From the NCBI GenBank assembly GCA_050014075.1, contig JBEKEA010000002.1, positions 26,860-90,859 on the forward strand: a stretch of DNA of 64,000 bases. The letters are read 5' to 3'. The notes under the pieces were generated by a model, which had not been told where the DNA came from, searched no databases, and was given only the letters and a program-made list of their open reading frames with translations. The stretch is from Sedimentisphaerales bacterium. GTDB lineage: Bacteria; Planctomycetota; Phycisphaerae; Sedimentisphaerales; UBA12454. The position numbers and the translations under genes are program-made. This document shows positions 435-59,183 of the stretch, piece by piece (within the stretch, counting starts at the first letter, position 1; each line of letters starts with the position of its first letter).

Positions 435-471
435 AGTTATCGGTTATCTGTTATCAGTTATCTGTTATCAG
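435..471. repeat. heptad tandem element, GTTATCN unit x5
   Basis: Reads agttatc ggttatc tgttatc agttatc tgttatc, then AGCACGAGCGG. The same junction GGTTATCAGCACGA recurs at 34972-34985. Confidence 0.85.
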
Positions 472-540
472 CACGAGCGGCTTCGACGATGTGTTTTTTG
501 TTATTGAAGCCAATTGAAAGCGGGGGTATAATTTAGGAAT

Positions 541-570
541 AGTTATCAGGGAGCAGTTATCGGTTATCAG
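541..570. repeat. heptad tandem element, GTTATCN family
   Basis: Reads agttatc agggagc agttatc ggttatc, with 7-bp phasing. Confidence 0.75.
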
Positions 571-722
571 CGAAAAAAGAAATATGAGACAGAAGACATC
601 AATCATGCGAAGGTTCGCCGAGTAATACGTGATGGTGGTTTTGTAAATGGTTATTAGTAAATTAAGATGTTATGTGGATTAATCTAATTATTATTCGATG
701 AGAGAGAATGACGGGAGGATTT

Positions 723-1763
723 ATGAAATCGCTGCTGATTGCTCTGACCGCTTTGTTTCTTTTTTCCCCGGCCACTTCGTTCGCTGGCGATCCTAACTTC
801 AAGATTGCGCCCAAGTTCGAGGCCGCGTGGATATTTTCCAAGGGGATTGCAGCCGTCAAGATTGGTGAAAAATGGGGGTACATAGACCGAGCGGGAGCCC
901 TGTCCATTCAGCCTCGATTTGATGCTGTCCAACTCTTGTACGATCCTAATGAACTTTTTTCCGAGGATCTTGCGGCAGTTCAGGTGCAAAAGAAATGGGG
1001 ATATATAGACAAAAAAGGGAATATGGTAATCGAGCCACGCTTCGACGAAGCAGAGAGTTTTCACGATGGATTCGCTCTGGTTGCATTGAACGAGGAAGGC
1101 TGTTCAAAGTACGGCTTCATCGACAAATCTGGAAAGTATTTGGTCAAGCCTATCTACGACTTCGGTGGCAATTTTTCACACGGAATGGCTAATGTCGTTG
1201 CCGGCAACCAGCAAGGCTATGTTGATAAACAGGGCAAGACCCAGATGCTGGGCAGATTCTCAGAGGTCACTAAATTCTTCGAGGGGTTGGCTGCGGTTCG
1301 TCAGGAGGGGAAATGGGGATACGTTGATGTAACCGGGAAAATCATTATCAAGCCACAGTTTGAGGAGTTTATACCAGGGTGGTTCTCGGAAGGCCTTTGC
1401 AGTGTTAAGGCGAACAACAAAAGGGGATTCATTGATAGAAACGGAATCATCGTGATTGAGCCAAAATTCGACCTTGTGGGCGAATTCGCTGAGGGGTTTG
1501 CCGTTGTAGGCATCGCCGGTTCCCATGGATACATTGACCGGACAGGCAAGATGGTTATTCAACTAAAATATGCAGACGCTTCCAATTTCTCGGAAGGCTT
1601 AGCGAAGGTATGCGTCACCCCTCTGGGACCATGGGGCTACATTAACACAAAAGGAGATCTGATAATCGCACCGCAGTTTGAAAAGGCAACCGATTTTTCT
1701 GAAGGTTTTGCTGCTGTGAGAGTCGGGAAGAAATGGGGGTATATATCGAAACCAACAAATTGA
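723..1763 (+). CDS. secreted WG-repeat (KWG-type) protein
   Basis: ORF 708-1763. The ATG at 723 is preferred because GGGAGGA lies 4 nt upstream. It has an N-terminal signal peptide (MKSLLIALTALFLFSPATSFA) and about 9 repeats of the (K)WGYIDxxGxxxIxPxFD pattern. Confidence 0.85.
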   Translation: MKSLLIALTALFLFSPATSFAGDPNFKIAPKFEAAWIFSKGIAAVKIGEKWGYIDRAGALSIQPRFDAVQLLYDPNELFSEDLAAVQVQKKWGYIDKKGNMVIEPRFDEAESFHDGFALVALNEEGCSKYGFIDKSGKYLVKPIYDFGGNFSHGMANVVAGNQQGYVDKQGKTQMLGRFSEVTKFFEGLAAVRQEGKWGYVDVTGKIIIKPQFEEFIPGWFSEGLCSVKANNKRGFIDRNGIIVIEPKFDLVGEFAEGFAVVGIAGSHGYIDRTGKMVIQLKYADASNFSEGLAKVCVTPLGPWGYINTKGDLIIAPQFEKATDFSEGFAAVRVGKKWGYISKPTN

Positions 1764-1844
1764 TACCTGAGTGTGTTGGCGGCGGTAAATGAAATTGCCG
1801 CGGTGTTCATCAAAGGTGCGAAAAGTGGAATGGTGAAACAAATT

Positions 1845-1912
1845 TAAGATTTGAAATTTGGAATTTCAGAGACGAACGACGAACCCCGTCATACGGTGAT
1901 GACGGGGCTAAC
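1845..1912. repeat. heptad run followed by ACGACGAAC-hairpin-GCTAAC module
   Basis: Reads aagattt gaaattt ggaattt cagagac gaacgac. Then a 9-bp stem CCCCGTCAT (1884-1892) pairs with ATGACGGGG (1899-1907), with a 3' flank CTAACC. A parallel module sits at 37737-37846. Confidence 0.75.
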
Positions 1913-1934
1913 CATTTAACGAAAACATAATACG

Positions 1935-2318
1935 CTACTGCGGTTCATCGCCCAATGGGATTTCGTCAATCCTGCATTCAGGGCATTTAGCAATCCTGAA
2001 AATGCCCCTCTGTCTTACAACGAGGCGTATGGGCTTGCCGTTCAAGTCAAAACAGCGCGCACAATACGGCGATGTGTCGAGTGTGCCATCAGCATTTCTT
2101 GCCCAATACACATTATTGCTAAAGAACAACCTGCCCGTTTCGACCGCATCGTATTTGGCAAGACGCTGCTCTGCCTCTTGCAGCCTTTGTTGCGTTTCCA
2201 AAAGCTTTTGTTGGAGTTCGAGGTCTTTGTTTATACTAGCTACTTTGGCAAGATTGGCGGGGAGTGTGATAAGTTGTTTGAGCCACGTCCAGAATGCATT
2301 AAACCAACCCAAAGCCAT
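1935..2318 (-). CDS. hypothetical protein: amphipathic N-terminus, coiled coil, C-terminal zinc ribbon
   Basis: ORF 1935-2339. The internal ATG at 2318 has GGAG 8 nt upstream. The middle segment is Q/E/L-rich (LELQQKLLETQQRLQEAEQRLAKY). The C-terminus has CARC...CPEC (CxxC x2). Confidence 0.5.
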   Translation of the reverse strand: MALGWFNAFWTWLKQLITLPANLAKVASINKDLELQQKLLETQQRLQEAEQRLAKYDAVETGRLFFSNNVYWARNADGTLDTSPYCARCFDLNGKPIRLVVRQRGIFRIAKCPECRIDEIPLGDEPQ

Positions 2319-2402
2319 AATTTGGTCTCCAAAACACACAGACTTATACGGAGAATATATAGGAAGTTTAGCTGTTTTGCAAGTAAAATCAAAAGTGAGA
2401 AG

Positions 2403-3017
2403 TTATCTTATCTTAAACTCATTTAGGTCTGTCTCTAACAGAAAACTTCTAAACGGTTCGTATTTAAAAGATTCGAAATTCAGCGGCGCGTATTCTTCAT
2501 CGCCGGACTGCAAAACAAATTTATCGTGCGCGTAAGCCGCTAAAATCCTGTGCTCGGGACAATCAGGGACATAGAAACAATATCGTTTGCCATTGCTATC
2601 GTTAAATTGTGCTTTGCAATAAGTATTGCCGCTTTGCTTTGTGCAAATGCAAACGCCTGCAAAACCACTATTATTTCTGGCTTTTACATTCAGGGCGTTT
2701 TGCCGGTATGTGGCAATTCTCAAGTTCTCTCTTCGATTATCGAATGTGTCGCCGTTAATGTGGTCAACAACCATTCCAGCCGGCGGATTGGTAATGAAAC
2801 GCGCAAGCGATACGAGCCTTGGAGGACTGGAGCCGAGAAGAATGGCAGGATAACTATTTCCATTTCCGGAAAAACGCAAGCCGATTATACCTTCGGCATA
2901 TTTGCTGCGTTGAGTAGGGCGAACATTGAAAATCTGATAATAAATATCAGGGTCAACTTTGACAGGCCGGCCTGCAATCGTGAAAGTCAGAAAATCGGTT
3001 GCGCTTTGTGTGGACAT
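2403..3017 (-). CDS. HNH endonuclease with AP2-like DNA-binding domain (homing or phage-type)
   Basis: Contains VVDHINGDTFDNRRENLRIATYRQN (HNH_3-type H-N-N core), followed by SGFAGVCICTKQSGNTYCKAQFNDSNGKRYCFYV, which resembles AP2/ERF-type strands. Confidence 0.7.
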   Translation of the reverse strand: MSTQSATDFLTFTIAGRPVKVDPDIYYQIFNVRPTQRSKYAEGIIGLRFSGNGNSYPAILLGSSPPRLVSLARFITNPPAGMVVDHINGDTFDNRRENLRIATYRQNALNVKARNNSGFAGVCICTKQSGNTYCKAQFNDSNGKRYCFYVPDCPEHRILAAYAHDKFVLQSGDEEYAPLNFESFKYEPFRSFLLETDLNEFKIR

Positions 3018-3242
3018 AGAAAAATAAGTGAAAAGTTAAAAGTTAAGGATATAGAAAAGGGAGATTTGATTAGTTTTAGAATTTACGGTTTGTCATTTAC
3101 AGTATCTTGGGAACTGTAAGCTGTTTAAAATAAGCATATTATGTGAATAAATGCCTTAAAATTCACTAATTATCAAACAACAAGGGTATTTTACTATATT
3201 TCTAACTAAAAATCAACTGAAAAATGAGATGAAAGGGATATA

Positions 3243-5093: not shown

Positions 5094-5112
5094 AAGGTAT
5101 TTTGTAAAACAG

Positions 5113-6768: not shown

Positions 6769-6793
6769 CATTACGCCATGCAATAAATAAATT
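6765..6793 (+). promoter_or_regulatory. duplicated polA-type promoter driving paralog 3
   Basis: TTGACA (6765-6770), 17 nt, TAAATT (6788-6793), then 7 nt to the ATG at 6801. It is near-identical in layout and sequence to the polA promoter at 10180-10208. Confidence 0.55.
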
Positions 6794-6800
6794 ATCAGCT

Positions 6801-8411
6801 ATGGCAAAAAATTTCTACAGAATTGACGGCCGCACACGTATCATTTTAATTTGTCTTGTCCTAACGTCAATGGTGTTAGCAGTTTTTGCCCAGGTACGCA
6901 GTCACGAATTTATTAATTACGACGACCCAGCCTACGTTACCGGAAATAATGCTGTCCTGAATGGTTTGTCCGCTGACAGTATCCTCTGGGCCTTTACGAC
7001 AGGTTGCTTCGGCAATTGGAATCCGCTGACGTGGATTTCATATATGCTGGACCGGCAGTTCTTCGGCTCAGGTCCCGCAGGATTTCACCTCACTAATCTT
7101 ATTCTCCATATCGCCAATGCCTTGATTCTATTTATTGTCTTAAAACAAATGACAAATGCGGTTTGGCAAAGCGCCTTCGTAGCGGCCCTGTTTGCGATTC
7201 ATCCTCTTCACGTCGAATCCGTCGCCTGGATTTCAGGCCGCAAGGATGTTCTGAGTACCTTTTTCGCTCTGCTGACAATGGCCGCATATCTGCGATATGT
7301 CAAAAAACCGGGTATCGCACGATACCTGCCGGCGCTGCTGCTTTTTGCGTTAGGCCTTATGGCAAAGCCAATGATTGTTACTTTGCCTTTTGCTTTTCTT
7401 CTGCTGGACTATTGGCCGCTGAATCGTATCAGAAATTTTAGCGGACAAAATATTTATCGTTTGATTTTGGAAAAAGTTCCCTTCCTTGTTTTATCCGTCG
7501 CTGCAGGTGTCGTCACCTATTATACACAAAAAAATATTGGAGCACTGCCGTCTTTTGCTGGGATGCCTCTGAAGTATCGTATTTTAAATGCCTTAATATC
7601 TTATGCAAAATATATTGGAAAAATGTTTATTCCGACCGGTCTCGCTCCGTTTTATCCTCACCCCCGTGAAGACGTATCGATTTTATACGCTCTGATTTCC
7701 GCCATTATCTTATTGGCTATAACTATTGTTGTTCTTTATTTCGTCAAAAATCGTCGGTATCTCCTTACGGGCTGGTTCTGGTATCTCGGAACGCTGATTC
7801 CGGTTCTCGGTATCATTCAGATTGGTTCGCATGCTATGGCCGATAGATATACTTATGTTCCACTGATTGGTTTATTTATAATGGTATCATTTGGCGGTGC
7901 TGAATTATTCGGCAAACTGCGATACGGCATCCGGATTTCCGCCGTCTCGGCTGCCGTTATAATTTTTGCACTGATGATTTGCACTTACAGGCAGGTGGGC
8001 TTTTGGCGCAACAGCATTACACTTTTTGAACACACCGCACAAGTTACTCAAAATAATTATTTGGCATACAGCAACCTTTCAAATGCGCTTGGTCAAAAAG
8101 GAGATTATGATGCCGCTATAAAAAACGGACTTGAGTCGCTGCGTATTCGGCCGAATTACGACACGCCGTGCTATAATCTTGGAATGGCTTATTATAGTAA
8201 AGGTGACACGGAAAAGGCAATTTACTACTGGACAGAGGCTCTAAAAATCAATCCGAAGTTTCCTGAGGCCAATTACGCTCTTGCGACAGCATTACTTAAT
8301 AAGAATGAGGTCGCACAGGCGATAAAATATCTTCAGGAGGAATTAAAAATAAATCCGAACCACACCGGCGCTAAAAAACTTCTCTCTAAACTAATATCCG
8401 CTACTCGGTAG
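6801..8411 (+). CDS. TMTC/DUF1736-type GT-C glycosyltransferase with TPR repeats, paralog 3 (N-terminus derived from polA 5' end)
   Basis: The ORF track begins at a TTG at 6765. The ATG at 6801 is preferred because 6757-6845 aligns with the polA promoter and first codons (MAKNFYRIDG vs MAKTLYIIDG). Family motif present: HPLHVESVAWISGRKDVLSTFF. Confidence 0.8.
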   Translation: MAKNFYRIDGRTRIILICLVLTSMVLAVFAQVRSHEFINYDDPAYVTGNNAVLNGLSADSILWAFTTGCFGNWNPLTWISYMLDRQFFGSGPAGFHLTNLILHIANALILFIVLKQMTNAVWQSAFVAALFAIHPLHVESVAWISGRKDVLSTFFALLTMAAYLRYVKKPGIARYLPALLLFALGLMAKPMIVTLPFAFLLLDYWPLNRIRNFSGQNIYRLILEKVPFLVLSVAAGVVTYYTQKNIGALPSFAGMPLKYRILNALISYAKYIGKMFIPTGLAPFYPHPREDVSILYALISAIILLAITIVVLYFVKNRRYLLTGWFWYLGTLIPVLGIIQIGSHAMADRYTYVPLIGLFIMVSFGGAELFGKLRYGIRISAVSAAVIIFALMICTYRQVGFWRNSITLFEHTAQVTQNNYLAYSNLSNALGQKGDYDAAIKNGLESLRIRPNYDTPCYNLGMAYYSKGDTEKAIYYWTEALKINPKFPEANYALATALLNKNEVAQAIKYLQEELKINPNHTGAKKLLSKLISATR

Positions 8412-8462
8412 AGATATATCTTCTTGACAGGAACGTTCTGCGGGGACTACTATATTGTAATT

Positions 8463-8576
8463 ATGGCAAAAACTTTATACATAATTGATGGTCACGCGCA
8501 CATTTACGCGGCATATTATGCGCCAATGAGTCAAAAACTTTCCAGCCCAATCGGCGAACCAAAAATTATCCCTTAA
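8463..8576 (+). pseudogene. orphan 5' remnant of polA (37 codons)
   Basis: Translates as MAKTLYIIDGHAHIYAAYYAPMSQKLSSPIGEPKIIP*. The first 29 residues are identical to PolA (10217...), and the DNA is about 90 percent identical by eye over about 90 nt. Its TAA stop ends 3 nt before the paralog-4 ATG. Confidence 0.85.
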
Positions 8577-8579
8577 ATA

Positions 8580-10136
8580 ATGAATAAAATATCAAGCAAA
8601 TATTATGTCCCTTTAATCTGCATTGCCCTGGCATTTATAAACCTGGCGGTTTACTTGCAAGTCCTCAATCACGATTTCATCGACTTTGATGATGACCTGT
8701 ATGTTACTAAAAATACCAATGTGCAATCCGGCCTGACCTTAAAAGACATAAAATGGGCCTTCACAACGAACCAGGCGTATAATTGGCATCCATTGACTTG
8801 GATATCGCATATGCTGGATTGCCAGCTTTATGGTTTAAATCCTGCCGGCCATCACTTCACAAATGTAATTTTTCACATAGCGAATACCTTATTTTTATTT
8901 CTGGTCTTCAAACGTATGACCGGTAACTTATGGCAAAGTGCTTTTGTTGCAGCCCTGTTTTCTCTGCACCCGCTTCATGTTGAATCAGTTGCCTGGGTCT
9001 CGGAGCGAAAAGACGTCCTCAGCACCTTTTTCTTGTTGCTCACTATATGGTTTTACATACGCTACACTCATCACCGACGGCTCGCTGATTACCTGCTGGT
9101 TATGCTTACCTTAGCGCTAGGCCTAATGGCCAAACAAATGCTGGTAACACTACCGTTTGTTCTGCTTCTATTAGACTATTGGCCTCTGCAGCGATTTACA
9201 TGGCCGTTAAAACAAAAAAAACATAAAGGTACATCTGCAACAACTTCACTTTCTCGCTGCTTCGTGGAGAAAGTGCCCTTTTTGGCTTTGTCTTTTATCG
9301 CAAGTCTAATCGTTCTTTATGTCCAATCAAAAGCTACGCTTGTAAGAAGCACAATTCAGATGCCAATCGTTTTTCGCATTGCAAATGCAATTCTTGCTTA
9401 TACAAAATATATCACAGAGATGTTCTGGCCCTTTCATTTGGGGATTCTTTATCCATACCCACAGACCAATCCTCAACTGTGGCAGGTTTTGACCGCTGGC
9501 TTACTGCTTCTGTGCATCACTGCCATAGTGTTCCGTTTGTCCCGCAACCGTCGCTGGCTCATAGTTGGATGGCTCTGGTACCTTGGAACCCTCGTTCCCG
9601 TAATCGGACTGGTGCAGGTCGGACTTCAGTCAATGGCTGACCGCTACACCTATGTCCCTTTCATTGGTCTATTCATCATCATTACATGGGGCGCCGCCGA
9701 ACTTATTGCAAAACTAAAATACAAGAATATTATCTTTGCAGCAGGTGCCGGGGTGGTGCTCCTGGTTTTATCGGTACTCACTTGGCTGCAACTGTCATAC
9801 TGGGAAAATAGCATTACATTGCTTGAGCATACCGTAGCTGTCACTGCCAACAATGATATTATACACTACAACCTGGGCATACTGCTGATAGAGCAAGGCA
9901 AGACTGACCAGGCCATTGAACATTGGCTTGAAGCCGTAAGAATCAGGCCTGAACAGCCGACAATTCACAATAATCTTGCGATTTTATTTGCTAAGCAGGG
10001 CAAAATCGAGGAGGCAATCCAACAATATCGCCAGGTGCTCAAATACAGACCTAACGATACCGTCGCATATAACCGCCTTAAAGCCCTCTTGGCCGCTCAA
10101 GAGAAATCTGCTGCCGAAGACAAAACTCCGAAATAA
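8580..10136 (+). CDS. TMTC/DUF1736-type GT-C glycosyltransferase with TPR repeats, paralog 4
   Basis: 518 aa, with FIDFDDDLYV, HPLHVESVAWVSERKDVLSTFF and a C-terminal TPR region. No SD is visible upstream; it abuts the polA-remnant ORF. Confidence 0.8.
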   Translation: MNKISSKYYVPLICIALAFINLAVYLQVLNHDFIDFDDDLYVTKNTNVQSGLTLKDIKWAFTTNQAYNWHPLTWISHMLDCQLYGLNPAGHHFTNVIFHIANTLFLFLVFKRMTGNLWQSAFVAALFSLHPLHVESVAWVSERKDVLSTFFLLLTIWFYIRYTHHRRLADYLLVMLTLALGLMAKQMLVTLPFVLLLLDYWPLQRFTWPLKQKKHKGTSATTSLSRCFVEKVPFLALSFIASLIVLYVQSKATLVRSTIQMPIVFRIANAILAYTKYITEMFWPFHLGILYPYPQTNPQLWQVLTAGLLLLCITAIVFRLSRNRRWLIVGWLWYLGTLVPVIGLVQVGLQSMADRYTYVPFIGLFIIITWGAAELIAKLKYKNIIFAAGAGVVLLVLSVLTWLQLSYWENSITLLEHTVAVTANNDIIHYNLGILLIEQGKTDQAIEHWLEAVRIRPEQPTIHNNLAILFAKQGKIEEAIQQYRQVLKYRPNDTVAYNRLKALLAAQEKSAAEDKTPK

Positions 10137-10179
10137 GTCAGTTAAGTTACACTTTGCAGGCAGCCCTTTGCTTATTACC

Positions 10180-10208
10180 TTGACATCGCACCGGACAATA
10201 AATAAAGT
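10180..10208 (+). promoter_or_regulatory. putative polA promoter, near-leaderless
   Basis: TTGACA (10180-10185), 17 nt, TAAAGT (10203-10208). Only 8 nt (TATCAGCT) separate the -10 box from the ATG at 10217, and there is no SD. Confidence 0.5.
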
Positions 10209-10216
10209 TATCAGCT

Positions 10217-12931
10217 ATGGCAAAAACCTTATATATAATTGACGGTCACGCACACATTTATGCGGCGTATTATGCGCCAATGAGTCAGAAACTTTCCAGC
10301 CCGACAGGTGAGCCTACCAAAGCCACATATATTTTCACCACGATGATTTTGAAACTTCTCGAAACAAAAAAGCCGGATATGCTCGTTGTCGCGATGGATT
10401 CCAAAGAGCCAAGTTTCCGTGCGGAAATTTACAAAGAATACAAGGCACACAGGCAGCCGATGCCTGAAGATATGCCAAAGCAGATAAATCGCATCGAGCA
10501 GATTCTTGAAGCAATGAATATCCCAATTATCCGCAAAAGCACATTCGAGGCCGACGACATAATCGGGACACTGGCGGCTAAAGCCGTAAAAGCCGGCATT
10601 GATACTTATATCTGCTCCAAAGACAAAGATATGCTCCAGCTTCTTGAGATTGGCGTTCATATATATGATGTAAAAACAGACGCTGTAACTGATGCCAAAT
10701 CATTTAAGCAGGAAACCGGCTTTGAGCCGCGGCAGTTTATCGATGTCCTTGCGCTGCAGGGCGATGCGAGCGATAACGTGCCCGGCGTTCCGGATGTCGG
10801 ACCAAAAACAGCCATTGAATGGATAAAACAATATGGCTCGCTTGAAGGCCTTTACGAACACGCCGATGAAATTAAAGGCAAACGCGGCGATAACCTGCGA
10901 AACTCAAAGGACATGGCGTTTCTCAGCAGAAAACTTGTAACAATAAATTGCGATATGCCCGTTGAAATCGACCAGAAGAATTTTGCCGTCAAAGAACCTG
11001 ATAAAGAAAAACTTACTGCGGTTTTCACAGGACTTGGCTTTAACAGGCTTTTAGGCCAGCTCAGCCTATCGCAGACCGAAACGCAAACTGAGGAAATTCG
11101 TAATAAAGACGGTTTCAACTCGATAAAAACTGTTAAACATAATTATCATTTAATTGACTCGCCTGAAAAACTCGATGATTTTTCCGCAAAGTTAAAAGAA
11201 CAAAAACTGTTTGCTGTCGATACCGAAACAACCTCAATATCTGCACATCGTGCCGAGCTTGTTGGAATAAGTATATCCTGGGAGGCTCATAACGCATATT
11301 ATATTGCCGTCAAAGGACCGATGGGGGCAAAATGCCTGGGTCTGTCGGTTGTGAAAGGGAAACTCGCGGCGATTTTCGCGGATGAAAAAATAAAAAAAAT
11401 CTGCCAGAACGCAAAATACGATATGATTGTTCTGCACAATTCCGATATGCCCGTTAAAGGCCTTGTATTCGATACTATGATAGCTTCCTATGTCCTCGAT
11501 GCCGAGAGAAGAAGTCATTCGCTCGATAATATGGCGTTGGATTTTCTTAACTATCGCAGCATTCCGATTTTCGACCTGATTGGCAAAGGCAAAAATCAAA
11601 TGAGCTTCGAGCTGGTCGATACGGCATCGGCCTGCGATTACTCCTGCGAAGACGCTGATTTTACATTTCAGCTTTATCACTACTTGGGCGAAAAACTTGA
11701 AAAAGAGCCAAAGCTAAAACATCTCTTCGAAAAAATTGAAATGCCTCTTGTCGAAGTCTTAACCACAATGGAGCTTAACGGCGTAAAAGTCGATATCCAG
11801 ATTCTCAGGCAGTTGTCAATTGAGATAAATAATCTGCTCGATCAGGTAACTGAAAAAATCCACAAACTTGCCGGCAGCGCATTCAATATAGATTCGCCCA
11901 AGCAGCTTTCCGATATATTATTCGACAAACTCGGCTTAAAATCAGTGCGAGAGGGCAAAACAGGCCATAGCACCGATGCCGACGTCCTCGAGGAACTGGC
12001 CGGCGAACATCCAATTATCGAACAGATTCTTCAGCAACGCCAGTTAAGCAAACTCAAGAATACTTATACTGACAAACTCGGTGCGCTGATAAATCCGCGA
12101 ACCGGCAGGGTGCACGCAAGTTTCAACCAGACAATTACCGCTACCGGCAGACTCAGTTCTTCCGACCCCAATTTGCAGAACATCCCCATTCGCACGGATA
12201 TAGGCAAAAAAATTCGTTCCGCGTTCGTGCCGGAGAAAAAAACAGATAAAATCGTCAGCCTCGACTATTCGCAGATTGAGCTTCGTATGGTTGCGCATTT
12301 CAGCGGCGACAAGGAATTAAAAAAAGCTTTCGAACAGGATAAGGACATTCACAGTTTTGTCGCCTCGCAGATTTACAACGTGGACATAAAAGACGTAACG
12401 AGCGAAATGCGGTCACGCTGCAAGGCAGTCAATTTCGGCCTGATTTACGGGCAGGGAGCCTTTGGCTTGAGCCGGACTACGGGTATGAACGTCGGCGAGT
12501 CGAAAAAATTCATCGAAGAATATTTCGCAAAATACAGCTCAATTCAGAAATTTAAAAAAGATGCGATAGAGACAGCCATAAAAACCGGCTATGCTGAAAC
12601 CATTTGCGGCAGAAGGAGAACAATTACCGGCCTGGACAGCAAAAACGGCAATGTACGTTCGCAGGCGGAAAGACTGGTGATAAATACGCTGGTTCAGGGT
12701 TCTGCCGCCGATTTGATTAAAATCGCGATGATAACGATTCAGAAAAAAATTGAGAACGAAAACCTGCCTGCGAAAATGATTTTACAGATTCACGATGAGC
12801 TGGTTTTTGAAGCTGACGGGAAACAGGCAAAAAAACTCGCTGATATTTTCGGCGATGAAATGACCGGCGCGATAAAACTTAATGTTCCGCTCAAAGTCGA
12901 TATTACAATTGGCGATAGCTGGCTCGGATAA
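10217..12931 (+). CDS. polA: DNA polymerase I
   Basis: 904 aa with three regions: a 5'-3' exonuclease N-terminus (LYIIDGHAHIYAAYYA), a 3'-5' exonuclease region (FAVDTETTS), and polymerase motifs (DYSQIELRMVAH, QVHDELVFE-like QIHDELVFE). Confidence 0.97.
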   Translation: MAKTLYIIDGHAHIYAAYYAPMSQKLSSPTGEPTKATYIFTTMILKLLETKKPDMLVVAMDSKEPSFRAEIYKEYKAHRQPMPEDMPKQINRIEQILEAMNIPIIRKSTFEADDIIGTLAAKAVKAGIDTYICSKDKDMLQLLEIGVHIYDVKTDAVTDAKSFKQETGFEPRQFIDVLALQGDASDNVPGVPDVGPKTAIEWIKQYGSLEGLYEHADEIKGKRGDNLRNSKDMAFLSRKLVTINCDMPVEIDQKNFAVKEPDKEKLTAVFTGLGFNRLLGQLSLSQTETQTEEIRNKDGFNSIKTVKHNYHLIDSPEKLDDFSAKLKEQKLFAVDTETTSISAHRAELVGISISWEAHNAYYIAVKGPMGAKCLGLSVVKGKLAAIFADEKIKKICQNAKYDMIVLHNSDMPVKGLVFDTMIASYVLDAERRSHSLDNMALDFLNYRSIPIFDLIGKGKNQMSFELVDTASACDYSCEDADFTFQLYHYLGEKLEKEPKLKHLFEKIEMPLVEVLTTMELNGVKVDIQILRQLSIEINNLLDQVTEKIHKLAGSAFNIDSPKQLSDILFDKLGLKSVREGKTGHSTDADVLEELAGEHPIIEQILQQRQLSKLKNTYTDKLGALINPRTGRVHASFNQTITATGRLSSSDPNLQNIPIRTDIGKKIRSAFVPEKKTDKIVSLDYSQIELRMVAHFSGDKELKKAFEQDKDIHSFVASQIYNVDIKDVTSEMRSRCKAVNFGLIYGQGAFGLSRTTGMNVGESKKFIEEYFAKYSSIQKFKKDAIETAIKTGYAETICGRRRTITGLDSKNGNVRSQAERLVINTLVQGSAADLIKIAMITIQKKIENENLPAKMILQIHDELVFEADGKQAKKLADIFGDEMTGAIKLNVPLKVDITIGDSWLG

Positions 12932-15455: not shown

Positions 15456-15487
15456 CTATTAACTATCAACTACCAACTATCAACTAT
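15456..15487. repeat. heptad tandem element, TAYCAAC unit
   Basis: Reads tattaac tatcaac taccaac tatcaac tat, starting 13 nt after the MFS stop. Confidence 0.85.
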
Positions 15488-16854: not shown

Positions 16855-17100
16855 GATGATTCCTGCGTTCGCCAGGAATTTCTTCCTTGAAGCACCTTCT
16901 CTGGAGGTCATTCCCGAGAAGGTACTTCTTTGAATCCGCTACAGGGAATTCTTCCTTGAAGTATCTTCAATGCAGTGTCATTCCTGAGAACCTGCATCTT
17001 TGGCTCCACTACAAGGAACATCCGGCATTTCACCGTATTATCACTTGCTTATATAACTTCCTCAGATATAAATCATTCCTTGAGGAAGCAACATCGAATT
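16855..17100. repeat. degenerate tandem hairpin-repeat array immediately 3' of the GIY-YIG gene
   Basis: Hairpin ATTCCTG (16859-16865) pairs with CAGGAAT (16873-16879). GTCATTCC(C/T)GAGAA repeats at about 16907 and 16977, 70-nt spacing. AATT(T)CTTCCTTGAAG occurs twice. Hairpin CTTCCTCA (17057-17064) pairs with TGAGGAAG (17081-17088). Confidence 0.7.
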
Positions 17101-17859: not shown

Positions 17860-17936
17860 CTGATAACCGATAACTGAGTTTCTGATAACTATTAACTATC
17901 AACCAGCGACTTTTATCCGCCTCAGGTGGAAGCGAC
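17860..17936. repeat. heptad element (CTGATAA / CTATCAA units) plus GAGGCGGATAAA-type hairpin module
   Basis: Reads ctgataa ccgataa ctgagtt tctgataa ctattaa ctatcaa ccagcgac, then TTTTATCCGCCTCAGGTGGA, which is the reverse complement of the module at 57841-57858 and 54826-54840. Confidence 0.8.
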
Positions 17937-18534: not shown

Positions 18535-19100
18535 CGGAGCGAAGCGGAGACCCCAGCGCTTAGTTTTGCTCGCGGGCAAAACTGCAGGGGATAGTTCCAA
18601 CACATCGTGACGCCTTAAAGCAATTTTGCCGTGTCAATCTGTGTTAATCCGTGTCTGAAAATCCTCTGTGGTCTCGGTGATCTCGGTGGCTAAAATATAT
18701 CTTCTTTGTCTTTGTGCCTTAGTGTCTTGGTGGCTATAAGCATTCAAAAAAACACAAAAATTATCAAAAAACAGGGCAAATTAATCAAAACTTGTCCGCC
18801 TCAGGCGTGATTAGTTCAAAAAAATCAAAAAAAATCAAAAATTTTCAAAATCTTTACTAAAACTTGTCCTCGCAACTACTTACAAACCATTTTTTAAAAA
18901 ATACTTACGCAAATAAAGGACTTATGGCAGACTCCATTTTACATTTTTTCCCTGTCTCGCCATAGTCTTTTGGCGATGGCGGAAACGCAAAATAAGGACT
19001 TACAGCTTTCGGATTTCGAAATTCGTATTTTTTTCATAGCGACTATCAATTATAAACTATGAACTAATTAACCAAACATTTCTTGCCATTCCACAGTAAG
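18535..19100. repeat. gene-free mosaic repeat block A
   Basis: Region 18838-18926 (reverse complement) matches 54066-54154 at roughly 85 percent by eye (CATAAGTCCTTTATTTGCGTA...GACAAGTTTTAGTAAAGATTTTGAAAA). It also shares the modules CTCTGTGG.CTCGGTG, GTCCGCCTCAGGCG, CGCCATAG...TGGCGATGGCGG and an ACGCAAA(T)AAGGACTTA duplication. Confidence 0.8.
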
Positions 19101-19204: not shown

Positions 19205-19279
19205 CGGGGTGTAGCTCAGTTTGGCTAGAGCGCCTGGTTTGGGACCAGGAGGCCGTAGGTTCGAATCCTATCACCCCGA
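19205..19279 (+). tRNA. tRNA-Pro (anticodon UGG)
   Basis: A manual cloverleaf fits. Acceptor CGGGGTG/CACCCCG, D-arm GCTC/GAGC, anticodon stem CCTGG/CCAGG with loop TTTGGGA (anticodon TGG, G37), T-arm GTAGG-TTCGAAT-CCTAT, discriminator A. CCA is not encoded. Confidence 0.9.
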
Positions 19280-30874: not shown

Positions 30875-30875
30875 A

Positions 30876-30908
30876 CTATTAACTATCAACCAGCAACTAT
30901 CAACTAAC
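30876..30908. repeat. heptad tandem element filling the oppA1-oppB intercistronic spacer
   Basis: Reads ctattaac tatcaac cagcaac tatcaac taac. It occupies essentially all 35 nt between the stop at 30910 and the start at 30874. No SD is visible. Confidence 0.85.
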
Positions 30909-32663: not shown

Positions 32664-32702
32664 CTATTGACTATTAACTATCAACTACCAACTATCAACT
32701 AC
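32664..32702. repeat. heptad tandem element between the two SBP paralogs
   Basis: Reads tattgac tattaac tatcaac taccaac tatcaac tac. It overlaps the stop codon of the upstream SBP gene. Confidence 0.85.
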
Positions 32703-34689: not shown

Positions 34690-34985
34690 AGTTAGGTCGA
34701 AAAACCCTTCGACTGCGCTCAGGGCAGGCGACGTAAAAAATGACGTAAGTCCTTTGTTTTCGAGGGGGTTTTTTATGTAAGTGTTTGCAGGGACAAGTTT
34801 TAGTGGCGTAATCCGCTAAGGGATGCCTCACGGCAGCCATCTCGACGATATAGATTTTGATTTTTTTGCCCTGTTTTGGAATGATTTACCCCTGTTTTTT
34901 GATGATTTTGGTGTTTTTTTAAATACAGTTATCGGTTATCAGATCATCAAGTTATTGGGAAACGGTTATCGGTTATCAGCACGAA
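34690..34985. repeat. mosaic repeat block B ending in a heptad element
   Basis: Shares TTCGACTGCGCTCAGGGCAGG, GTAAGTCCTTTG, GGGACAAGTTTTAGT, GATTTTGATTTTTTTGCCCTGTTTT and TTTTGGTGTTTTTTTAAAT with blocks A and C. Region 34927-34985 holds GTTATCN heptads, followed by GCGGGGGGATTTTTTATGG, which is also at 55029-55046. Confidence 0.75.
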
Positions 34986-35186
34986 CAACTCAGGCGGGGG
35001 GATTTTTTATGGTGGAGTTTGGGAAGAAAAAGTGTATAATTAAATATTGTTTAGTTTAATTTATCGGAGTGAAGGAAGAGAAAACATGCGGCATAAGTCT
35101 GTTGGCATTTTGTGCCGCCACAAGTTATCTTAATTTCCTTTTTCGCTGCTGTTAGTTTAGACCAAATTTTTTGGAAGAAGAAGAAA

Positions 35187-37186: not shown

Positions 37187-37225
37187 GAACGTCCAACATT
37201 GAACACTGAACATTTAACTTTGAAT
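37187..37225. repeat. heptad element, TGAACAY family
   Basis: GAACGTCCAACATTGAACACTGAACATTTAACTTTGAATG is about 90 percent identical by eye to 58706-58743. Confidence 0.85.
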
Positions 37226-37303
37226 GTGGAACCGCCGAGGCGGGAAATTTTGTCGTTGAGTTTAGTGGAACCGCCGAGGCGGGAAATTTTGTCGTTGAGT
37301 TTA
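37226..37303. repeat. perfect 39-bp tandem duplication
   Basis: GTGGAACCGCCGAGGCGGGAAATTTTGTCGTTGAGTTTA occurs twice (37226-37264 and 37265-37303). Each copy carries a CCGC-CGAG-GCGG mini-hairpin. Confidence 0.95.
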
Positions 37304-37736: not shown

Positions 37737-37846
37737 GAAATCCGAAATACGAATATCGAAATCCGAAACAAATCAGAAATTCAAAATTTCAATGTTCAAA
37801 ACACACCAAAAACGACGAACCCCCACTAAAAGTGGGGGCTAAACAG
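37737..37846. repeat. heptad run (GAAATMC units) followed by ACGACGAAC-hairpin-GCTAAAC module
   Basis: Reads gaaatcc gaaatac gaatatc gaaatcc gaaacaa atcagaa attcaaa atttcaa tgttcaa. Then AACGACGAA, stem CCCCCACT (37820-37827) pairing with AGTGGGGG (37831-38), then CTAAAC. Confidence 0.8.
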
Positions 37847-37904
37847 GCGGGATAATCGATTATTTAATAATTGACAAATTATGGGGGATTGTTAGGATTA
37901 TAAT

Positions 37905-37942
37905 CAGATTACAGATAACAGATTATAGATTATAGTTAATAG
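37905..37942. repeat. heptad element, CAGATWA unit
   Basis: Reads cagatta cagataa cagatta tagatta tagttaa tag, just upstream of thrS. Confidence 0.75.
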
Positions 37943-37982
37943 AAAACTGAAATATTATTTAGGTTGAAAGACCAGAATATCG

Positions 37983-50169: not shown

Positions 50170-50311
50170 TGCCTGTAAAAATCAATAGTATTATATCATG
50201 CTCAGTTTAATATTTCCGATAATCCGCGGGTAACACCTTTTAAATAAGATGTTGCGATTTTCATCGCGGAAGTTTCTTACCCTTAAGGGTATATTATAGC
50301 TTTTTAATAAA

Positions 50312-52188: not shown

Positions 52189-52602
52189 AAGTAGCTATAT
52201 TTAAATCAATTACGCAATGAAATGTCAATACATTTATGGTGAGCCAGCTTGTCCTGTTTACCCTGAGCTTGTCGAAGGGAGCAGCATCGAAGGAGTCGAA
52301 TCCATAAAAAAACTCCCGGAATAGTCATCCACTGGCATTCCGGAAGTTCGCCACGGCTTAAAAGCCGCAAAAATCTCGTTTTCATCGGGCGTAAGTATAT
52401 CCATCACAGATATGATTGTCAATCTACTTAGAAAAATTACAAAAAATTGCATAACTATTTATGAATGAATAAGTTATGGTAAAAAAATACGAAAAATTGG
52501 AAAAATTTAGAATAAATCGCAAATATGCGCAATAAGTTATTGTGCAGTAATGACTTAGATTATTTGTTGATTTGCGTGCAGTTTCTTGTAGAATCTCTGC
52601 CT

Positions 52603-53988: not shown

Positions 53989-53997
53989 TTGACTGGA

Positions 53998-54026
53998 GTT
54001 GATAGTTGGTAGTTGATAGTCATAAG
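53998..54026. repeat. heptad tandem element (GTTGATA, inverted orientation of TATCAAC)
   Basis: Reads gttgata gttggta gttgata gtcataag, 10 nt after the dacB stop. Confidence 0.85.
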
Positions 54027-55073
54027 TCGTTTGTTTACGTTGAAAAAACGTAAAAAGGTGCATTTCATAAGTCCTTTATTTGCGTACTGTTTTTTTGAAA
54101 AATGGTTTGTAAGTTTTTAGCGGGACAAGTTTTAGTAAAGATTTTGAAAAATTTTGAAAATTTTGGATTATTTTGAACGAATTTTGATTTTTTTGCCATG
54201 TTTTTATACGATTTTTCACTTTTTTTAATCACTGATTACGCAGATATAAAAGATATGTTTTCACCACAGAGAGCACCGAGGCCACAGAGATTTTTAGACG
54301 CTGATCCGCCTCCGTCAAGGACTATGGTGGACAAGTTTCGCAGATTACGTTCACCACGAAGGGCGGAAGAAACACGAAGACAATATTAATTTCACCACCG
54401 AGCCACAGAGCTCATCTGCCGTCGCTACGAGCTATGGCGGACAGGCAGAACGCACAGAGGCGATATTGCTTTAAGACATCCCTACGGGATTTAATAATTC
54501 TAAAATCAAACCCTCCCTGAAGCCGACCCATTCGACTACGCTCAGGGTAGGGCTTCGTCCGGGTTTATATTTTGTAATTATTGCCCCTAAGGGGCTTTTG
54601 TCTTAAAGCAATAGAACATTTTCACTATGCTGTATTGCAGTATACTGTAATACAGTATACTGCATACGAGTATAGAGATTTAAGATTTTTGATACTGGGA
54701 GTTTTTGATACTAAAGATTTTTTGAAGAAAGGGGAATTAGTGCAGGCGTCCGCCGTCGTCCCTAAGGGCTTCCGTCTTCGCCAAAAGGCTACGAACGGAC
54801 AGGATGACGAGATCTTCGCTTCGCTCCGAGGCGGATAAAAGTCGGTGGTGGTGGTTTTTGGTGTTGTAGGGGGCCCCCTTGCGGGGGTTTCCGCTGCGCT
54901 CCAACGCTGTGGCTCCGACGAAAAATTCTTTTTATAAAAGTGTTTTACGTAGCCACTAAGTCACCAAGACACGAAGATAATTTTAAATTCTAAATTTTTA
55001 ATGTTGAATTGCGGAGCCACCGAAAGCGGGGGAATTTTTTATGCGGCAAAAAGGAAATTTAAAATAGGTGACT
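54027..55073. repeat. gene-free mosaic repeat block C (about 1 kb)
   Basis: Region 54066-54154 matches block A (reverse complement) and partly block B. It has multiple CACCACAGAG/CACCGAGCCACAGAG units, four CCG(Y)C..TCGC...CTA(T/C)GG(Y)GGACAGG-type hairpin modules, GACTACGCTCAGGGTAGG, GAGGCGGATAAAAG and GAAAGCGGGGGAATTTTTTATG, plus a perfect palindrome at 54636-54664. Confidence 0.8.
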
Positions 55074-55099
55074 GTCCCTAGTTTTTCCTATTTTTCCAA

Positions 55100-55318
55100 T
55101 TAAGCCAATCCGTCTTTGAACTTTGGTGCAAGTACGTTCCCTCCTGGGAGGATAGTTTTATCCTCTCTTTGGATGGATCCTGGTTTGATAGCATCTCTCG
55201 GAATTTTCTTAACCTCGTGAGAGTATGGCTCGATGATCTCATAGTTCCCGTTTTTGTCAACGCGAATGTCATCTGCGCGACGGGTTTGACCGGCAATATT
55301 TAAACGAAACCTTGACAT
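55100..55318 (-). CDS. 72-aa orphan protein with strong expression signals
   Basis: MSRFRLNIAGQTRRADDIRVDKNGNYEIIEPYSHEVKKIPRD... with SD AAGAGGTG 5 nt upstream and a consensus promoter at 55363-55391. I recognise no family. Confidence 0.6.
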   Translation of the reverse strand: MSRFRLNIAGQTRRADDIRVDKNGNYEIIEPYSHEVKKIPRDAIKPGSIQREDKTILPGGNVLAPKFKDGLA

Positions 55319-55362
55319 AATTACACCTCTTTTCGAATAAAAATCTGTTTATTCTGGTGTAA

Positions 55363-55391
55363 ATTATAGGTAACTGTCATATAGTAGTCAA
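55363..55391 (-). promoter_or_regulatory. near-consensus sigma70 promoter for the 72-aa gene
   Basis: The minus strand reads TTGACT (55386-55391), 17 nt, TATAAT (55363-55368), about 45 nt upstream of the ATG at 55318. Confidence 0.6.
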
Positions 55392-55433
55392 GTCAAAAAA
55401 CATACAAAATAAATAAACGGCCACTATTTATTC

Positions 55434-55457
55434 GTCCCCTATTTATTCCTATTTTTT
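55434..55457. repeat. GTCCC-CTATTTATT-CCTATTTT boundary element (left of R-M pair)
   Basis: GTCCCCTATTTATTCCTATTTTTT. There is a direct copy at 55074-55095, an inverted copy at 57793-57822, and a related copy at 63961-63994. Confidence 0.65.
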
Positions 55458-55503
55458 CTTGAGATTTTAAAACAAAGATGCTGGATGACTTTCCCCAAAA
55501 ATA

Positions 55504-57009: not shown

Positions 57010-57671
57010 ATCTTTTGAATACCTTTAACTTTTCCCGCCTCATTAATTATACGTTGGTACTGAAGCCGCCATTGAAGTGCATTTGAAATAGTGAGATAAC
57101 CCATTTGAGGTGGATTCTTGAGGAGTTCTTGTGCTATTTTCTCAGCTTCAATGTCATCCACCGGCAACATTCTTTCATGTAAAAAGGCAACGATATCGTC
57201 GACATTTCCTTTATTTTCAATTATCTTACGAAGTCCTGTAGTCGTCTGGAAATCACCTGTGTTGTCTTTTTCGACAAATATAGTATGTAAAATCTTCAGT
57301 CTACCTGTTTTAAACTTTCCATCGTCAGTTTTGTCATAGACAAAAACGAGAAGAGAATAACCTAATCCATAAATTTTTTGCCGCGCTGACCTGTAAGGAC
57401 AGGAAGACTGAGGCTGCTTGATACTTGTAACTTTTATATCCACATTTAACTGCGGAAAATCTATTCCTGAAGCGGAATTACCTTCTGAAAAATCATACTT
57501 TCCAGACAAATACATTCGGAATTTCTGTTCAAAATAAGTACCTATGGCCTTCCCATCGGTTACTCCGAAAATAGCGGGTTCATCGTGTTTTGATTCGCGA
57601 ACAGCAAAATAATGAGCTTCTTCACAGAGTTTAGCCTCGCTTAATTTTAGTTTTGCCTTCATCCGTGCCAC
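57003..57671 (-). CDS. putative type II restriction endonuclease (PD-(D/E)XK-like)
   Basis: Overlaps the methyltransferase start by 7 nt. Candidate catalytic segment GIDFPQLNVDIKVT (D...D-x-K). No named family recognised. The start may be the ATG at 57662. Confidence 0.5.
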   Translation of the reverse strand: MARMKAKLKLSEAKLCEEAHYFAVRESKHDEPAIFGVTDGKAIGTYFEQKFRMYLSGKYDFSEGNSASGIDFPQLNVDIKVTSIKQPQSSCPYRSARQKIYGLGYSLLVFVYDKTDDGKFKTGRLKILHTIFVEKDNTGDFQTTTGLRKIIENKGNVDDIVAFLHERMLPVDDIEAEKIAQELLKNPPQMGYLTISNALQWRLQYQRIINEAGKVKGIQKIC

Positions 57672-57792
57672 AGGCCTACTTTAAGATAAATTGAAATTTA
57701 AAACCGCCAAAAATAGCAAACTAATCTTATCAGAATAATGACAGACAGGCAATAAAAAAGAACAGCACTAATTCAATTTATTTTACCGTAGT

Positions 57793-57870
57793 AAAATAGG
57801 AGTAAATAAATAGGTGCGGGACAGGCAAACCCTGCCAAGGTCCGCCTGAGGCGGATAAATGTTGGCAGGG
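57793..57870. repeat. inverted boundary element plus nested hairpin module ending GGGCTAACC
   Basis: AAAATAGG (57793-57800), AATAAATAG (57805-57813) and GGGAC (57818-57822) mirror the left element. Stem CCCTGCCAA (57830-38) pairs with TTGGCAGGG (57862-70) and encloses TCCGCCTGAGGCGGATAAA. Confidence 0.65.
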
Positions 57871-57879
57871 CTAACCGAT

Positions 57880-58650
57880 TTATATCGGAAGTGTAATTAT
57901 AAACTTTGTCCCTTGATTAATCTTTGAATCTACTTCGATAGTGCCGTTGTGGGAATTAATTATTTCCTTGCAGAAAACAAGGCCCAATCCAGAACCAACT
58001 CTTGCAGCGGGCCCCTCAGGGGTTTTTGTTGTAAAGAACGGCTCAAATAACTTGTCCATATTCTCCTGCTCAATTCCGCAGCCTGTATCGCCGACCTCTA
58101 TGATAACTGTATCCTGCTGCCTGCGAGCGGTTATCTGGAGCGTTCCGCCTAATGGCATCATCGCTTCACGAGCGTTTAAAATCAGGTTCATTAAGACCTG
58201 CTGCATCTGAACCGGCACAGCAAGAATATCAAGCTCTTCCGGTATTTCCATTTTGACTTTAAGACTGTCTTTTTCGAATTCCCTGCCGATACAGGAAAAG
58301 ACCTCTTCGATGAGCTGTTTCAATCTGCATTGGCGTTTTTCGAGGGCTTCGCCGTTGACGACGGCAAGCATACTTTCGAGAATTTCAGATGCCCTTGCGC
58401 TGTTGTGCACGGTCTTTTGCAGGGCTTTTTGAGTTAGCGGGAGGTCGGTTGGATTATTTAACGCAACCTGAGCGTAATTGCCCAGCGGCATAAGAATATT
58501 ATTAATTTCGTGAGCTACAATCGCACTGATAGTGCCCAGATTTGCCAGGGCCTGGAGCTTTGCCAGGCGTGCTTCAAGCTCTTTGTTCTGCTGTAGTTGC
58601 AGGTTAATCTCTTTGTTGAGAGAACGGCGCTTTTCAATCAATTGAGTCAT
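57880..58650 (-). CDS. cytoplasmic sensor histidine kinase (HisKA + HATPase_c, no TM or sensor domain)
   Basis: N-terminal coiled coil, H-box SAIVAHEINNIL, N-box LNLILNAREAM, G1 DTGCGI and G2 GSGLGL. Confidence 0.85.
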   Translation of the reverse strand: MTQLIEKRRSLNKEINLQLQQNKELEARLAKLQALANLGTISAIVAHEINNILMPLGNYAQVALNNPTDLPLTQKALQKTVHNSARASEILESMLAVVNGEALEKRQCRLKQLIEEVFSCIGREFEKDSLKVKMEIPEELDILAVPVQMQQVLMNLILNAREAMMPLGGTLQITARRQQDTVIIEVGDTGCGIEQENMDKLFEPFFTTKTPEGPAARVGSGLGLVFCKEIINSHNGTIEVDSKINQGTKFIITLPI

Positions 58651-58705
58651 TTACATGCTCCGAAGCAGCAAAGAAATAAGGGAAGTAAGGAATTAATGAT
58701 TAAAA

Positions 58706-58743
58706 TTGAACGTCCAACATTGAACATCGAACATCCAACTTTG
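58706..58743. repeat. heptad element, TGAACAY family
   Basis: TTGAACGTCCAACATTGAACATCGAACATCCAACTTTG is a copy of 37187-37225. The palindrome GCCTTTGGCAAAGGC follows at 58760-58774. Confidence 0.85.
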
Positions 58744-58902
58744 TTTGAATGAGGAATTTGCCTTTGGCAAAGGCTTCAAATGAGTATATTCCCTACATTC
58801 ACAATTCATTACTGCCGGCATTTTTTGCTATGAAAAAAACAATATTAGGATAAAATTACAATATTATATTTATCGACATTTAGGGCGTTTTTCCTTAAAG
58901 AT

Positions 58903-59157
58903 ATGGATAATAAAGCCGTTTTAGACGAGTTGCTTGAGTTACTTGAGAAAAATAATGTTAAAATACGTAAAGATTCGCTGGGCGGGGGAGGGTCGGGATT
59001 GTGCAAAATAAAAGGCGAATACCTGTTCTTTCTGGATATGGATTCGAGCTCTTATGAAGTTGCGATAAGCTGCGCAAAAGCTGTGAATGAAATTATAGAT
59101 ATTGAAACGATTTATTTAAAGCCGGAAGTAAGGGAGTTCCTTGAGGGAAATAAGTAA
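58903..59157 (+). CDS. hypothetical 84-aa protein
   Basis: MDNKAVLDELLELLEKNNVKIRKDSLGGGGSGLCKIKGEYLFFLD.... Lies divergent from the histidine kinase and upstream of the response regulator. No recognised family. Confidence 0.45.
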   Translation: MDNKAVLDELLELLEKNNVKIRKDSLGGGGSGLCKIKGEYLFFLDMDSSSYEVAISCAKAVNEIIDIETIYLKPEVREFLEGNK

Positions 59158-59183
59158 CTCAGTTATCAGTTATCGGTTATCAG
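59158..59183. repeat. heptad tandem element, GTTATCN family
   Basis: Reads ctcagttatc agttatc ggttatc ag, starting right after the stop codon at 59155-59157. Confidence 0.8.

Follow-up and report, generated by a model that had tools for sequence, protein, structure and literature searches.

Tandem arrays of seven-base units have been described in the intergenic DNA of many bacteria. TAACTGA repeats were found as 169 sets of two to six units in a Beggiatoaceae genome (MacGregor 2015, PMC4679880), and sets of the same unit also occur in other Beggiatoaceae, 15 cyanobacteria and five Bacteroidetes, mixed with "a range of repeating heptamers" (PMC4679880). Close relatives are without the arrays at the same junctions, and the rules of orientation are species-specific (PMC4679880). 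In the BOGUAY pattern the TAACTGA units are read forward a few nucleotides (nt) before the start codon, usually with no Shine-Dalgarno sequence, and a role for these repeats as transcribed binding sites of an RNA-binding protein was proposed by MacGregor (PMC4679880). Heptamers are an over-represented class of bacterial simple sequence repeats (SSRs) according to Mrazek 2007, as cited in PMC4679880 and PMC4692102, and the suggestion that polymerase slippage favours this length is attributed to the same work by Rehm et al. (PMC4692102). Further examples are the short tandemly repeated repetitive (STRR) heptamers of Calothrix, as cited in PMC4692102, the GGGGAYT repeats of Nostoc and GGGAATC repeats of Xanthomonas (PMC4692102), and the TTTTGAA/GACYAAT heptamers of Nostoc (bioRxiv 10.1101/2022.06.06.494920). 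For Nostoc heptamers close to promoters or start codons a regulatory function has been considered, though no mechanism was given. A 2025 survey of short tandem repeats leaves heptamers unmentioned, and we found no report in the literature of heptamer arrays in Planctomycetota. Here we describe such arrays in 64,000 nt of DNA from a Sedimentisphaerales bacterium (contig JBEKEA010000002.1, positions 26,860 to 90,859), hereafter called the window. They belong to the described class of heptamer repeats, and the membership of Planctomycetota in that class is new. An earlier note on this DNA had found no fit with palindromic repeats, CRISPR, classical microsatellites or the ends of insertion sequences; the published heptamers show that the arrays do fit a known kind.

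The window unit GTTATCA is TAACTGA on the other strand, rotated, and the variants TAACAGA and TAACCGA are found here too. As with the TAACTGA repeats, the sets are short (2–6 units), almost all intergenic and mixed with other heptamers, and close relatives are without arrays at the same junctions. They differ in that the host lies outside the published list, relative to co-directional neighbours the TAACNGA strand is for the most part the antisense one, the arrays stand after stop codons or near promoters and not at start codons, and TAACTGA is only one of at least five families. No window array has the BOGUAY arrangement; one array of the sister genome L202 (GCA_936421645.1, ~92–94% identical) does, being a forward TAACNGA array whose end, TAACTGGAG, stands 5 nt upstream of the ATG that starts a DUF302 gene. 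Since other arrangements are reported in Microcystis (PMC4679880), this feature is species-specific. With the cyanobacterial STRR and other heptamer SSRs the window shares tandem 7-bp units, several families per genome, intergenic positions near start codons or promoters, length and sequence that vary between related species, and the absence of an established function. The window arrays, however, are short (20–66 nt) and degenerate rather than long pure tracts, include exact dispersed copies of each other, and have units unlike those published. Long SSRs with 5–11-bp units (Mrazek et al. 2007, as cited in PMC4679880 and PMC4692102; Huang and Mrazek 2014, PMC4060949) are likewise commonest as heptamers and intergenic in free-living bacteria with large genomes, and slippage at a polymerase-determined length has been proposed for them. 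Their definition, as given there, needs statistically long, near-perfect runs, whereas most window arrays have 3–5 imperfect units and no unit-number variation is seen between the two closest genomes here.

The periodicity was assessed by scanning for 21-base segments in which at least 16 (or at least 15) bases equal the base 7 positions on, with 30 dinucleotide-preserving shuffles of the 64-kb window as control. At 16/21 there were 10 period-7 runs in the window as against a mean of 0.03 in the shuffles, and at 15/21 there were 14 as against 0.37. Periods 4–6, 8–13 and 15 gave 0–4 runs each in the same scan, while period 14, a multiple of 7, gave 5 and 8; only period 7 and its multiple are clearly enriched. 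Tandem Repeats Finder reported period-7 arrays at nearly all coordinates named earlier. In total, all 18 arrays lie in non-coding DNA, which makes up only 11% of the window. Three of them, located by the period scan, extend the earlier list: an AAGTTAA-type array of three units at 3019–3054 (plus strand), beside the start of an HNH-endonuclease gene (2403–3017, minus strand); a degenerate composite at 18998–19067, upstream of tRNA-Pro, in which an inverted GAAATCC-family piece is followed by an AACTATN piece; and an AT-rich TAAATTN-type array at 54977–55011. Thus several unrelated units, in at least five families, occupy a single 64-kb stretch (GTTATCN, GTTGATA, TGAACAY, GAAATCC, CAGATTA and AT-rich).

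These results bear out, for the window, the earlier note's picture of dispersed intergenic elements which differ in unit between families and keep a fixed 7-base period. Head-to-tail 7-base units are present at every site it had named. Its description of the arrays was too regular, though: instead of 4–9 units, clear units number only 2–5.5 per site, and the heptads are interrupted or loose at 541–570, 34927–34985, 1845–1883 and in the second half of 37737–37802. The single wobbling position described for the units holds for GTTATCN alone, the other families having 2–4 variable positions, and the concentration of unit variation in few positions is not significant (P = 0.08). We found nothing behind the remark that three units equal 21 bp, or two helical turns.

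Family by family, the arrays are dispersed copies. The GTTGATA (TATCAAC) array at 15456–15487, 32 nt on the minus strand between the convergent genes for a major facilitator superfamily (MFS) transporter and XerD, is identical over 32/32 bases (ATAGTTGATAGTTGGTAGTTGATAGTTAATAG) to 32670–32701, 17 kb away. The latter is part of a minus-strand array of 5.5 units (32664–32702) which runs from the TAG stop of oppA1 and is followed by GGAG and the oppA2 ATG. Positions 30875–30906 are 94% identical to the 32-base copy; here the array (30876–30908, minus strand) forms the whole oppA2-oppB spacer, the order being stop, 2 nt, array and an ATG without a Shine-Dalgarno sequence. A further match of 24/24 bases is at 53997–54020, in the four-unit plus-strand array at 53998–54026 which begins 9 nt past the dacB stop and precedes an AT-rich hairpin. 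A short minus-strand copy (GCTGGTTGATAGTTAATAG) is found at 17882–17910, 25 nt past the LysM gene stop and between two hairpins. The order of variant units, GTTGATA-GTTGGTA-GTTGATA-GTTAATA, is common to five copies. Since slippage separately at each site would not give identical copies or the same unit order, the arrays must have been copied.

Other families, too, have members at several sites. GTTATCN arrays are located on the plus strand at 435–471 (five units, reverse complement TAACNGA, reading TAACAGA TAACTGA TAACAGA TAACCGA on the minus strand), 541–570 (one plus two units, interrupted), 34927–34985 (doublets around a degenerate centre) and 59158–59183 (three GTTATCR units, starting at the stop of an open reading frame of 84 amino acids and 43 nt before a response-regulator gene), and on the minus strand at 17860–17881 (a doublet downstream of the LysM gene, plus strand TAACCGA TAACTGA). 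Two of them, compared over 435–499 and 34951–35007, share the 3' flank CAGCACGARC. An independent repeat search regrouped both the TATCAAC copies (D9) and the GTTATCN copies (D12, D15, D16). The two plus-strand TGAACAY arrays, 37187–37225 (five units) and 58706–58743, had been called about 90% identical, and 32 of the ~36 bases alignable by eye do match (~89%).

Comparison with relatives revealed that the arrays are lineage-specific insertions, since overlapping or tightly coupled genes are found in relatives at three of the occupied junctions. Besides L202, these included independent assemblies from other samples with identical DNA (100%; L203, L206, L209 and L210), L205 (~94%) and a further relative (L216–L222; ~87–91%). 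The convergent XerD and MFS genes have a 16-nt overlap in relatives of ~88% DNA identity; at this point the window carries a unique 92-nt insertion that includes the array. Among more distant relatives the oppA2 stop and the oppB start overlap in ATGA, and 8 nt lie between oppA1 and oppA2; the window has a 33–39-base GTTGATA array at both junctions. On the 3' side of oppA1 two other relatives carry a different heptamer array (TTTAAAA/TTAAAAT) and a hairpin. No such array follows dacB in relative L222, and no OppA2 ortholog was found at 90% or more in the sister genome. As read from these junctions, genes that once overlapped can be uncoupled when an array is inserted, and the second gene can then have no Shine-Dalgarno sequence.

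Two arrays upstream of thrS could be followed in closer relatives. The GAAATCC array at 37737–37802 (plus strand), which passes into a degenerate A-rich stretch before a GC hairpin, is kept unit for unit in L202, and the five-unit CAGATTA array at 37905–37942 (plus strand), in the thrS 5' leader, is kept in L202 and L205, with a similar array at the same place in L004. Position, phase and unit number of both are unchanged in L202 and L205. Conservation extends to the ~94% sister genome for these two, but arrays are absent from the same junctions in ~88% and more distant relatives; the refuting condition set in the earlier note, that copies keep neither place nor phase in close relatives, thus has a mixed outcome. 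Substitutions relative to the ~94% sister amount to 9.1% and 10.5% in the arrays and 10.8% in the rest of that spacer. No whole-unit (7-nt) indels were seen relative to L202 and L205, only two orthologous arrays being compared, which is a very small sample. Having substitutions only, and at the rate of the spacer, the arrays are not hypervariable, and no constraint on them is visible. Downstream of gene 1935–2339, L202 is not homologous to the window. The window threonyl-tRNA synthetase is 83% and 80% identical to homologues from Phycisphaerae and Sedimentisphaerales metagenome-assembled genomes (MAGs). A cyanobacterial or Beggiatoaceae origin of the window, to which the type of repeat might point, is thereby rejected in favour of Sedimentisphaerales. 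Throughout the order the thrS leader keeps its -35 box and a stretch of 30 nt ahead of the ATG. Between these two, the window, L202 and L004 have a heptamer array, and L002 and L003 a GC hairpin. The 30-nt segment (TTTGAGGTTTAAGGGCCGGAATA..CGATG, within 37943–37982) lies just before the thrS start and is conserved in L002, L003, L004 and L202; with the -35 sequence TTGACAA, which is also conserved, it may be a leader or operator element.

With regard to placement, the arrays at 37187 and 53998 lie between a stop codon and a terminator hairpin, the former between the stop of a PEP-CTERM gene and a duplicated hairpin. Those at 37737, 1838 and 58706 adjoin hairpins in other spacers; the second is a degenerate AAATTTG/GAAATTT-type array (1838–1870, plus strand) beside the terminator hairpin of the minus-strand gene 1935–2339, and the third is followed by a palindromic hairpin. 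Arrays between cistrons are those at 30876, 32664 and 59158, and the array at 15456 is between convergent genes. The arrays at 541 and 37905 lie at the start of 5' leaders, directly past a -10 box. The first starts 11 nt after a TATAAT box and so is probably at the start of its leader, and the second is just past a TATAAT (~37900–37905) read by eye, for which the promoter scan instead gives TAGGAT ending at 37898. A promoter-like TTGAAG-17-TATAAT, also read by eye, is found ~36 nt downstream of the 435–471 array. The proposal that arrays start within a few nt of stop codons applies to 6 of the 18 (≤15 nt), a marginal excess (P ~0.05). Units with TAG, TGA or TAA provide stop codons in all three frames.

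The predicted RNA folding of the arrays ranges from 0 to -7.5 kcal/mol, with z-scores of -2.2 to +1.3 relative to shuffles. No array matches an Rfam family at the gathering score, tRNA-Pro (19205–19279) being the only match in the whole window. The absence of Rfam matches and the folding, which is no better than that of shuffles, rule out a structured or known RNA. Repetitive extragenic palindromic (REP) sequences and bacterial interspersed mosaic elements are rejected because the arrays are direct repeats and not palindromic stem-loops, again folding no better than shuffles; clustered regularly interspaced short palindromic repeats (CRISPR) are rejected because the units are 7 bp and contiguous, not 24–48-bp repeats with unique spacers of similar length. 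On these two classes, and on the ends of insertion sequences (IS) or miniature inverted-repeat transposable elements (MITEs), the earlier note's exclusions agree with what we found, the defining features being absent, for the mobile-element ends as judged by eye. Phase-variable contingency SSRs do not fit either, as no array is in a reading frame and unit number is unchanged relative to the sister genome. A Rho-dependent (rut-like) role of the G-free strand is dismissed since the sense strand at the unambiguous sites is G-rich GUUGAUA; in rut sites the C residues are spaced ~12 nt apart, not 7. The GATAAC repeats bear some likeness to Fur boxes, from which they differ as direct repeats of 7-bp period without an inverted half-site.

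Several other sequence features were seen in the window and in L202. Directly 3' of the TGAACAY array, a 39-bp unit (GTGGAACCGCCGAGGCGGGAAATTTTGTCGTTGAGTTTA) which holds a terminator-like hairpin is present twice in perfect tandem (37226–37303). Positions 1875–1915 and 37811–37845 share the motif AACGACGAA-CCCC(stem-loop)GGGG-CTAAMC, with the same flanks and different stem sequences; on the minus strand it has the form of an intrinsic terminator, which suits gene 1935–2339, but no minus-strand gene precedes it at 37811. Three promoter-like sites (TTGAAG/TTGACA ... GGGGG ... TATAAT) have 5–6 consecutive G within their spacer or shortly before it (~520–535, ~37883–37887 and ~34996–35001), perhaps a lineage-specific promoter feature. 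In L202 a GTTATCN array (7106–7145), which on its other strand is the array before the DUF302 gene, stands at the very point where synteny with the window breaks off. A G-rich array of ~8 TAGGGNA units (2582–2638), also in L202, is of the kind for which G-quadruplexes have been reported in Nostoc and Xanthomonas.

Beyond the window (10 runs in 64 kb), period-7 runs number 7 in 97 kb of the closest relatives, 17 in 431 kb of Planctomycetota relatives and 2 in 778 kb from other phyla, where the coding-type periods 6, 9 and 12 dominate. Period-7 runs are thus a trait of the clade. Of two unrelated MAG loci that are dense with arrays, one (L037; CP070698.1, 'bacterium isolate bin582', 1–21875) holds 19 heptamer arrays with many different units in 22 kb, and the other (L032) has four in 6 kb. 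In the former there are also inverted array pairs 20–130 nt apart (e.g. 17727–17757/17881–17911 and 16788–16817/16911–16940), which could fold into long hairpins. AACTATC-type arrays (pattern ACTATCAACNNNCAACTATCAAC) are present on more than 120 metagenome contigs with a GC content of 21–67%, often with other heptamers adjacent and frequently as inverted pairs. Relative to co-directional flanking genes their orientation is 25:17, which is not significant, and their apparent closeness to stop or start codons is partly forced, because orientation decides whether stop codons occur. In IMG/VR, four GTTATCN units occur in 61 contigs and three composition-matched permutations in 27, 80 and 21; at other spacings the same hexamer yields 38 contigs (period 6) and 13 (period 8). 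These counts suggest that the unit sequence is not special, and that period 7 is only modestly ahead in that database.

To account for these observations we give about an even chance to the view that the arrays are heptamer cassettes born by slippage, copied from place to place and kept only in permissive gaps, their origin and maintenance both being passive. Strand slippage would amplify a 7-base unit locally, loops of this size probably escaping mismatch repair. An array of 20–40 bases would then be copied to other non-coding sites, as the dispersed identical copies indicate, perhaps by recombination or by templated, microhomology-type insertion. Judging from their placement, copies would persist only where harmless, that is, between stop and terminator, between cistrons and at the starts of 5' leaders. 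Thereafter they would be unstructured spacer DNA or RNA, drifting at the neutral rate in agreement with the substitution counts. We propose that these cassettes are the Sedimentisphaerales counterpart of the cyanobacterial STRR and TAACTGA-type repeats. Several points weigh against this passive account. Nothing was seen that would explain the copying: there was no transposase among the minority of window genes scanned, and neither terminal inverted repeats nor a consistent target duplication. Slippage predicts differences in unit number between strains, of which the two orthologous arrays have none. The two arrays directly past a -10 box, and the replacement of the oppB ribosome-binding region by an array, would be compatible with a regulatory element too. 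Orientation follows transcription in the window, with GTTGATA on the sense strand at 3/3 unambiguous sites, and the recurrence of TAACTGA and AACTATC in distant phyla is not obviously explained by chance slippage.

Alternatively, the arrays might be transcribed platforms that tune translation initiation or mRNA stability through an RNA-binding protein with a footprint of ~7 nt for each domain or subunit; cold-shock-domain proteins and ribosomal protein S1 would be examples. That the arrays are single-stranded and unstructured in the predicted folding is consistent with this, as are the oppB ATG directly past an array with no Shine-Dalgarno sequence, the L202 array before the DUF302 gene, which reproduces the published BOGUAY arrangement (PMC4679880), the thrS and 541–570 arrays at the very start of 5' leaders, the L004 array at the same thrS leader position, and a family orientation in the window that agrees with the sense strand. 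Yet the arrays drift as fast as the neighbouring spacer, the same genes in close relatives have no array or have hairpins or other heptamers, orientation across metagenomes is 25:17, at least five unrelated units are found in 64 kb, and a number of the arrays stand in 3' regions or where genes converge; we therefore hold this possibility only tentatively and think it improbable. More doubtful is the wider proposition that the arrays are recognition tracks for a protein reading nucleic acid in 7-nt steps across Planctomycetota, Cyanobacteria, Beggiatoaceae and Bacteroidetes. If true, it would explain identical units (TAACTGA, AACTATC) across phyla of very different base composition, and the arrays next to stop codons, between cistrons and where leaders begin would amount to a layer of post-transcriptional control, taking over part of the coupling otherwise provided by Shine-Dalgarno sequences.

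At the DNA level, a strict 7-bp step across unit families could reflect paralogous binders, the arrays being operators or iterons bound cooperatively by small dimeric proteins of the omega or ribbon-helix-helix type. The omega repressor, a ribbon-helix-helix protein of plasmid pSM19035, binds runs of 7-bp WATCACW heptads, direct or inverted. Its operators resemble the arrays in their contiguous 7-bp units, direct or inverted, cooperative binding being a feature of omega; the window arrays are direct, with inverted pairs in other genomes (L037, L139, L091 and others), and two abut -10 boxes while two more lie upstream of promoter-like sites. The omega operators, though, stand upstream of specific plasmid promoters with one consensus and a known binder, whereas the window arrays have many consensus sequences and are mostly at 3' ends or inside operons. 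Many follow stop codons or lie inside operons or between convergent genes, where operators are unexpected; they drift at the neutral rate and come and go at the same genes in relatives, and no candidate binder gene was identified beside any array in a scan that covered a minority of the window genes. We regard operators as unlikely. Ends or remnants of a MITE, an IS or another site-specific mobile element seem less likely still: identical 32-nt copies at distant loci, clean filled and empty sites at three junctions and an extra array at the L202 synteny break are what such an element would leave, but by eye there are no terminal inverted repeats at any array end and no consistent target-site duplication at the three filled/empty pairs, the elements are only 20–40 nt long, no transposase is among the minority of window genes scanned, and the XerD/MFS copy is only one part of a unique insertion of 92 nt. 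Chance low-complexity sequence or an assembly artefact is extremely improbable. Although some listed sites are short or degenerate (541–570, 1845–1883, 54977–55011), it is ruled out by the 10–14 runs observed against 0.03–0.37 in shuffles and by the same arrays in independent assemblies (L203, L209 and L210 at 100%, and L202 and L205 at ~94%).

Repeats distinct from the heptamers were also noted in the window. T-rich phased motifs with a period of 10–21 bp (ATTTTGATTTTTTTGCCNTGTTTTT), 80% alike, occupy long spacers at 34854–34920 and 54137–54226 and resemble curved DNA or upstream promoter elements. A duplicate, 88% identical, of the opening ~100 nt of the gene for DNA polymerase I (start 10217; 10216–10314) stands at 8462–8560, upstream of a gene starting at 8580, and there is a weaker third copy at 6789–6837. 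A 70-bp unit is repeated 2.1 times (77% match) at 16874–17018, in a spacer with small open reading frames.

The practical importance of these arrays is modest. They provide clean before-and-after cases in which overlapping or translationally coupled genes have been separated by a 30–40-base array, and an array can be an exact copy of another elsewhere in the genome. They also extend the patchy distribution of heptamer repeats to a fourth distant lineage, the Sedimentisphaerales of the Planctomycetota, which makes inheritance or a single horizontal transfer harder to invoke and a process shared by many bacteria likelier.

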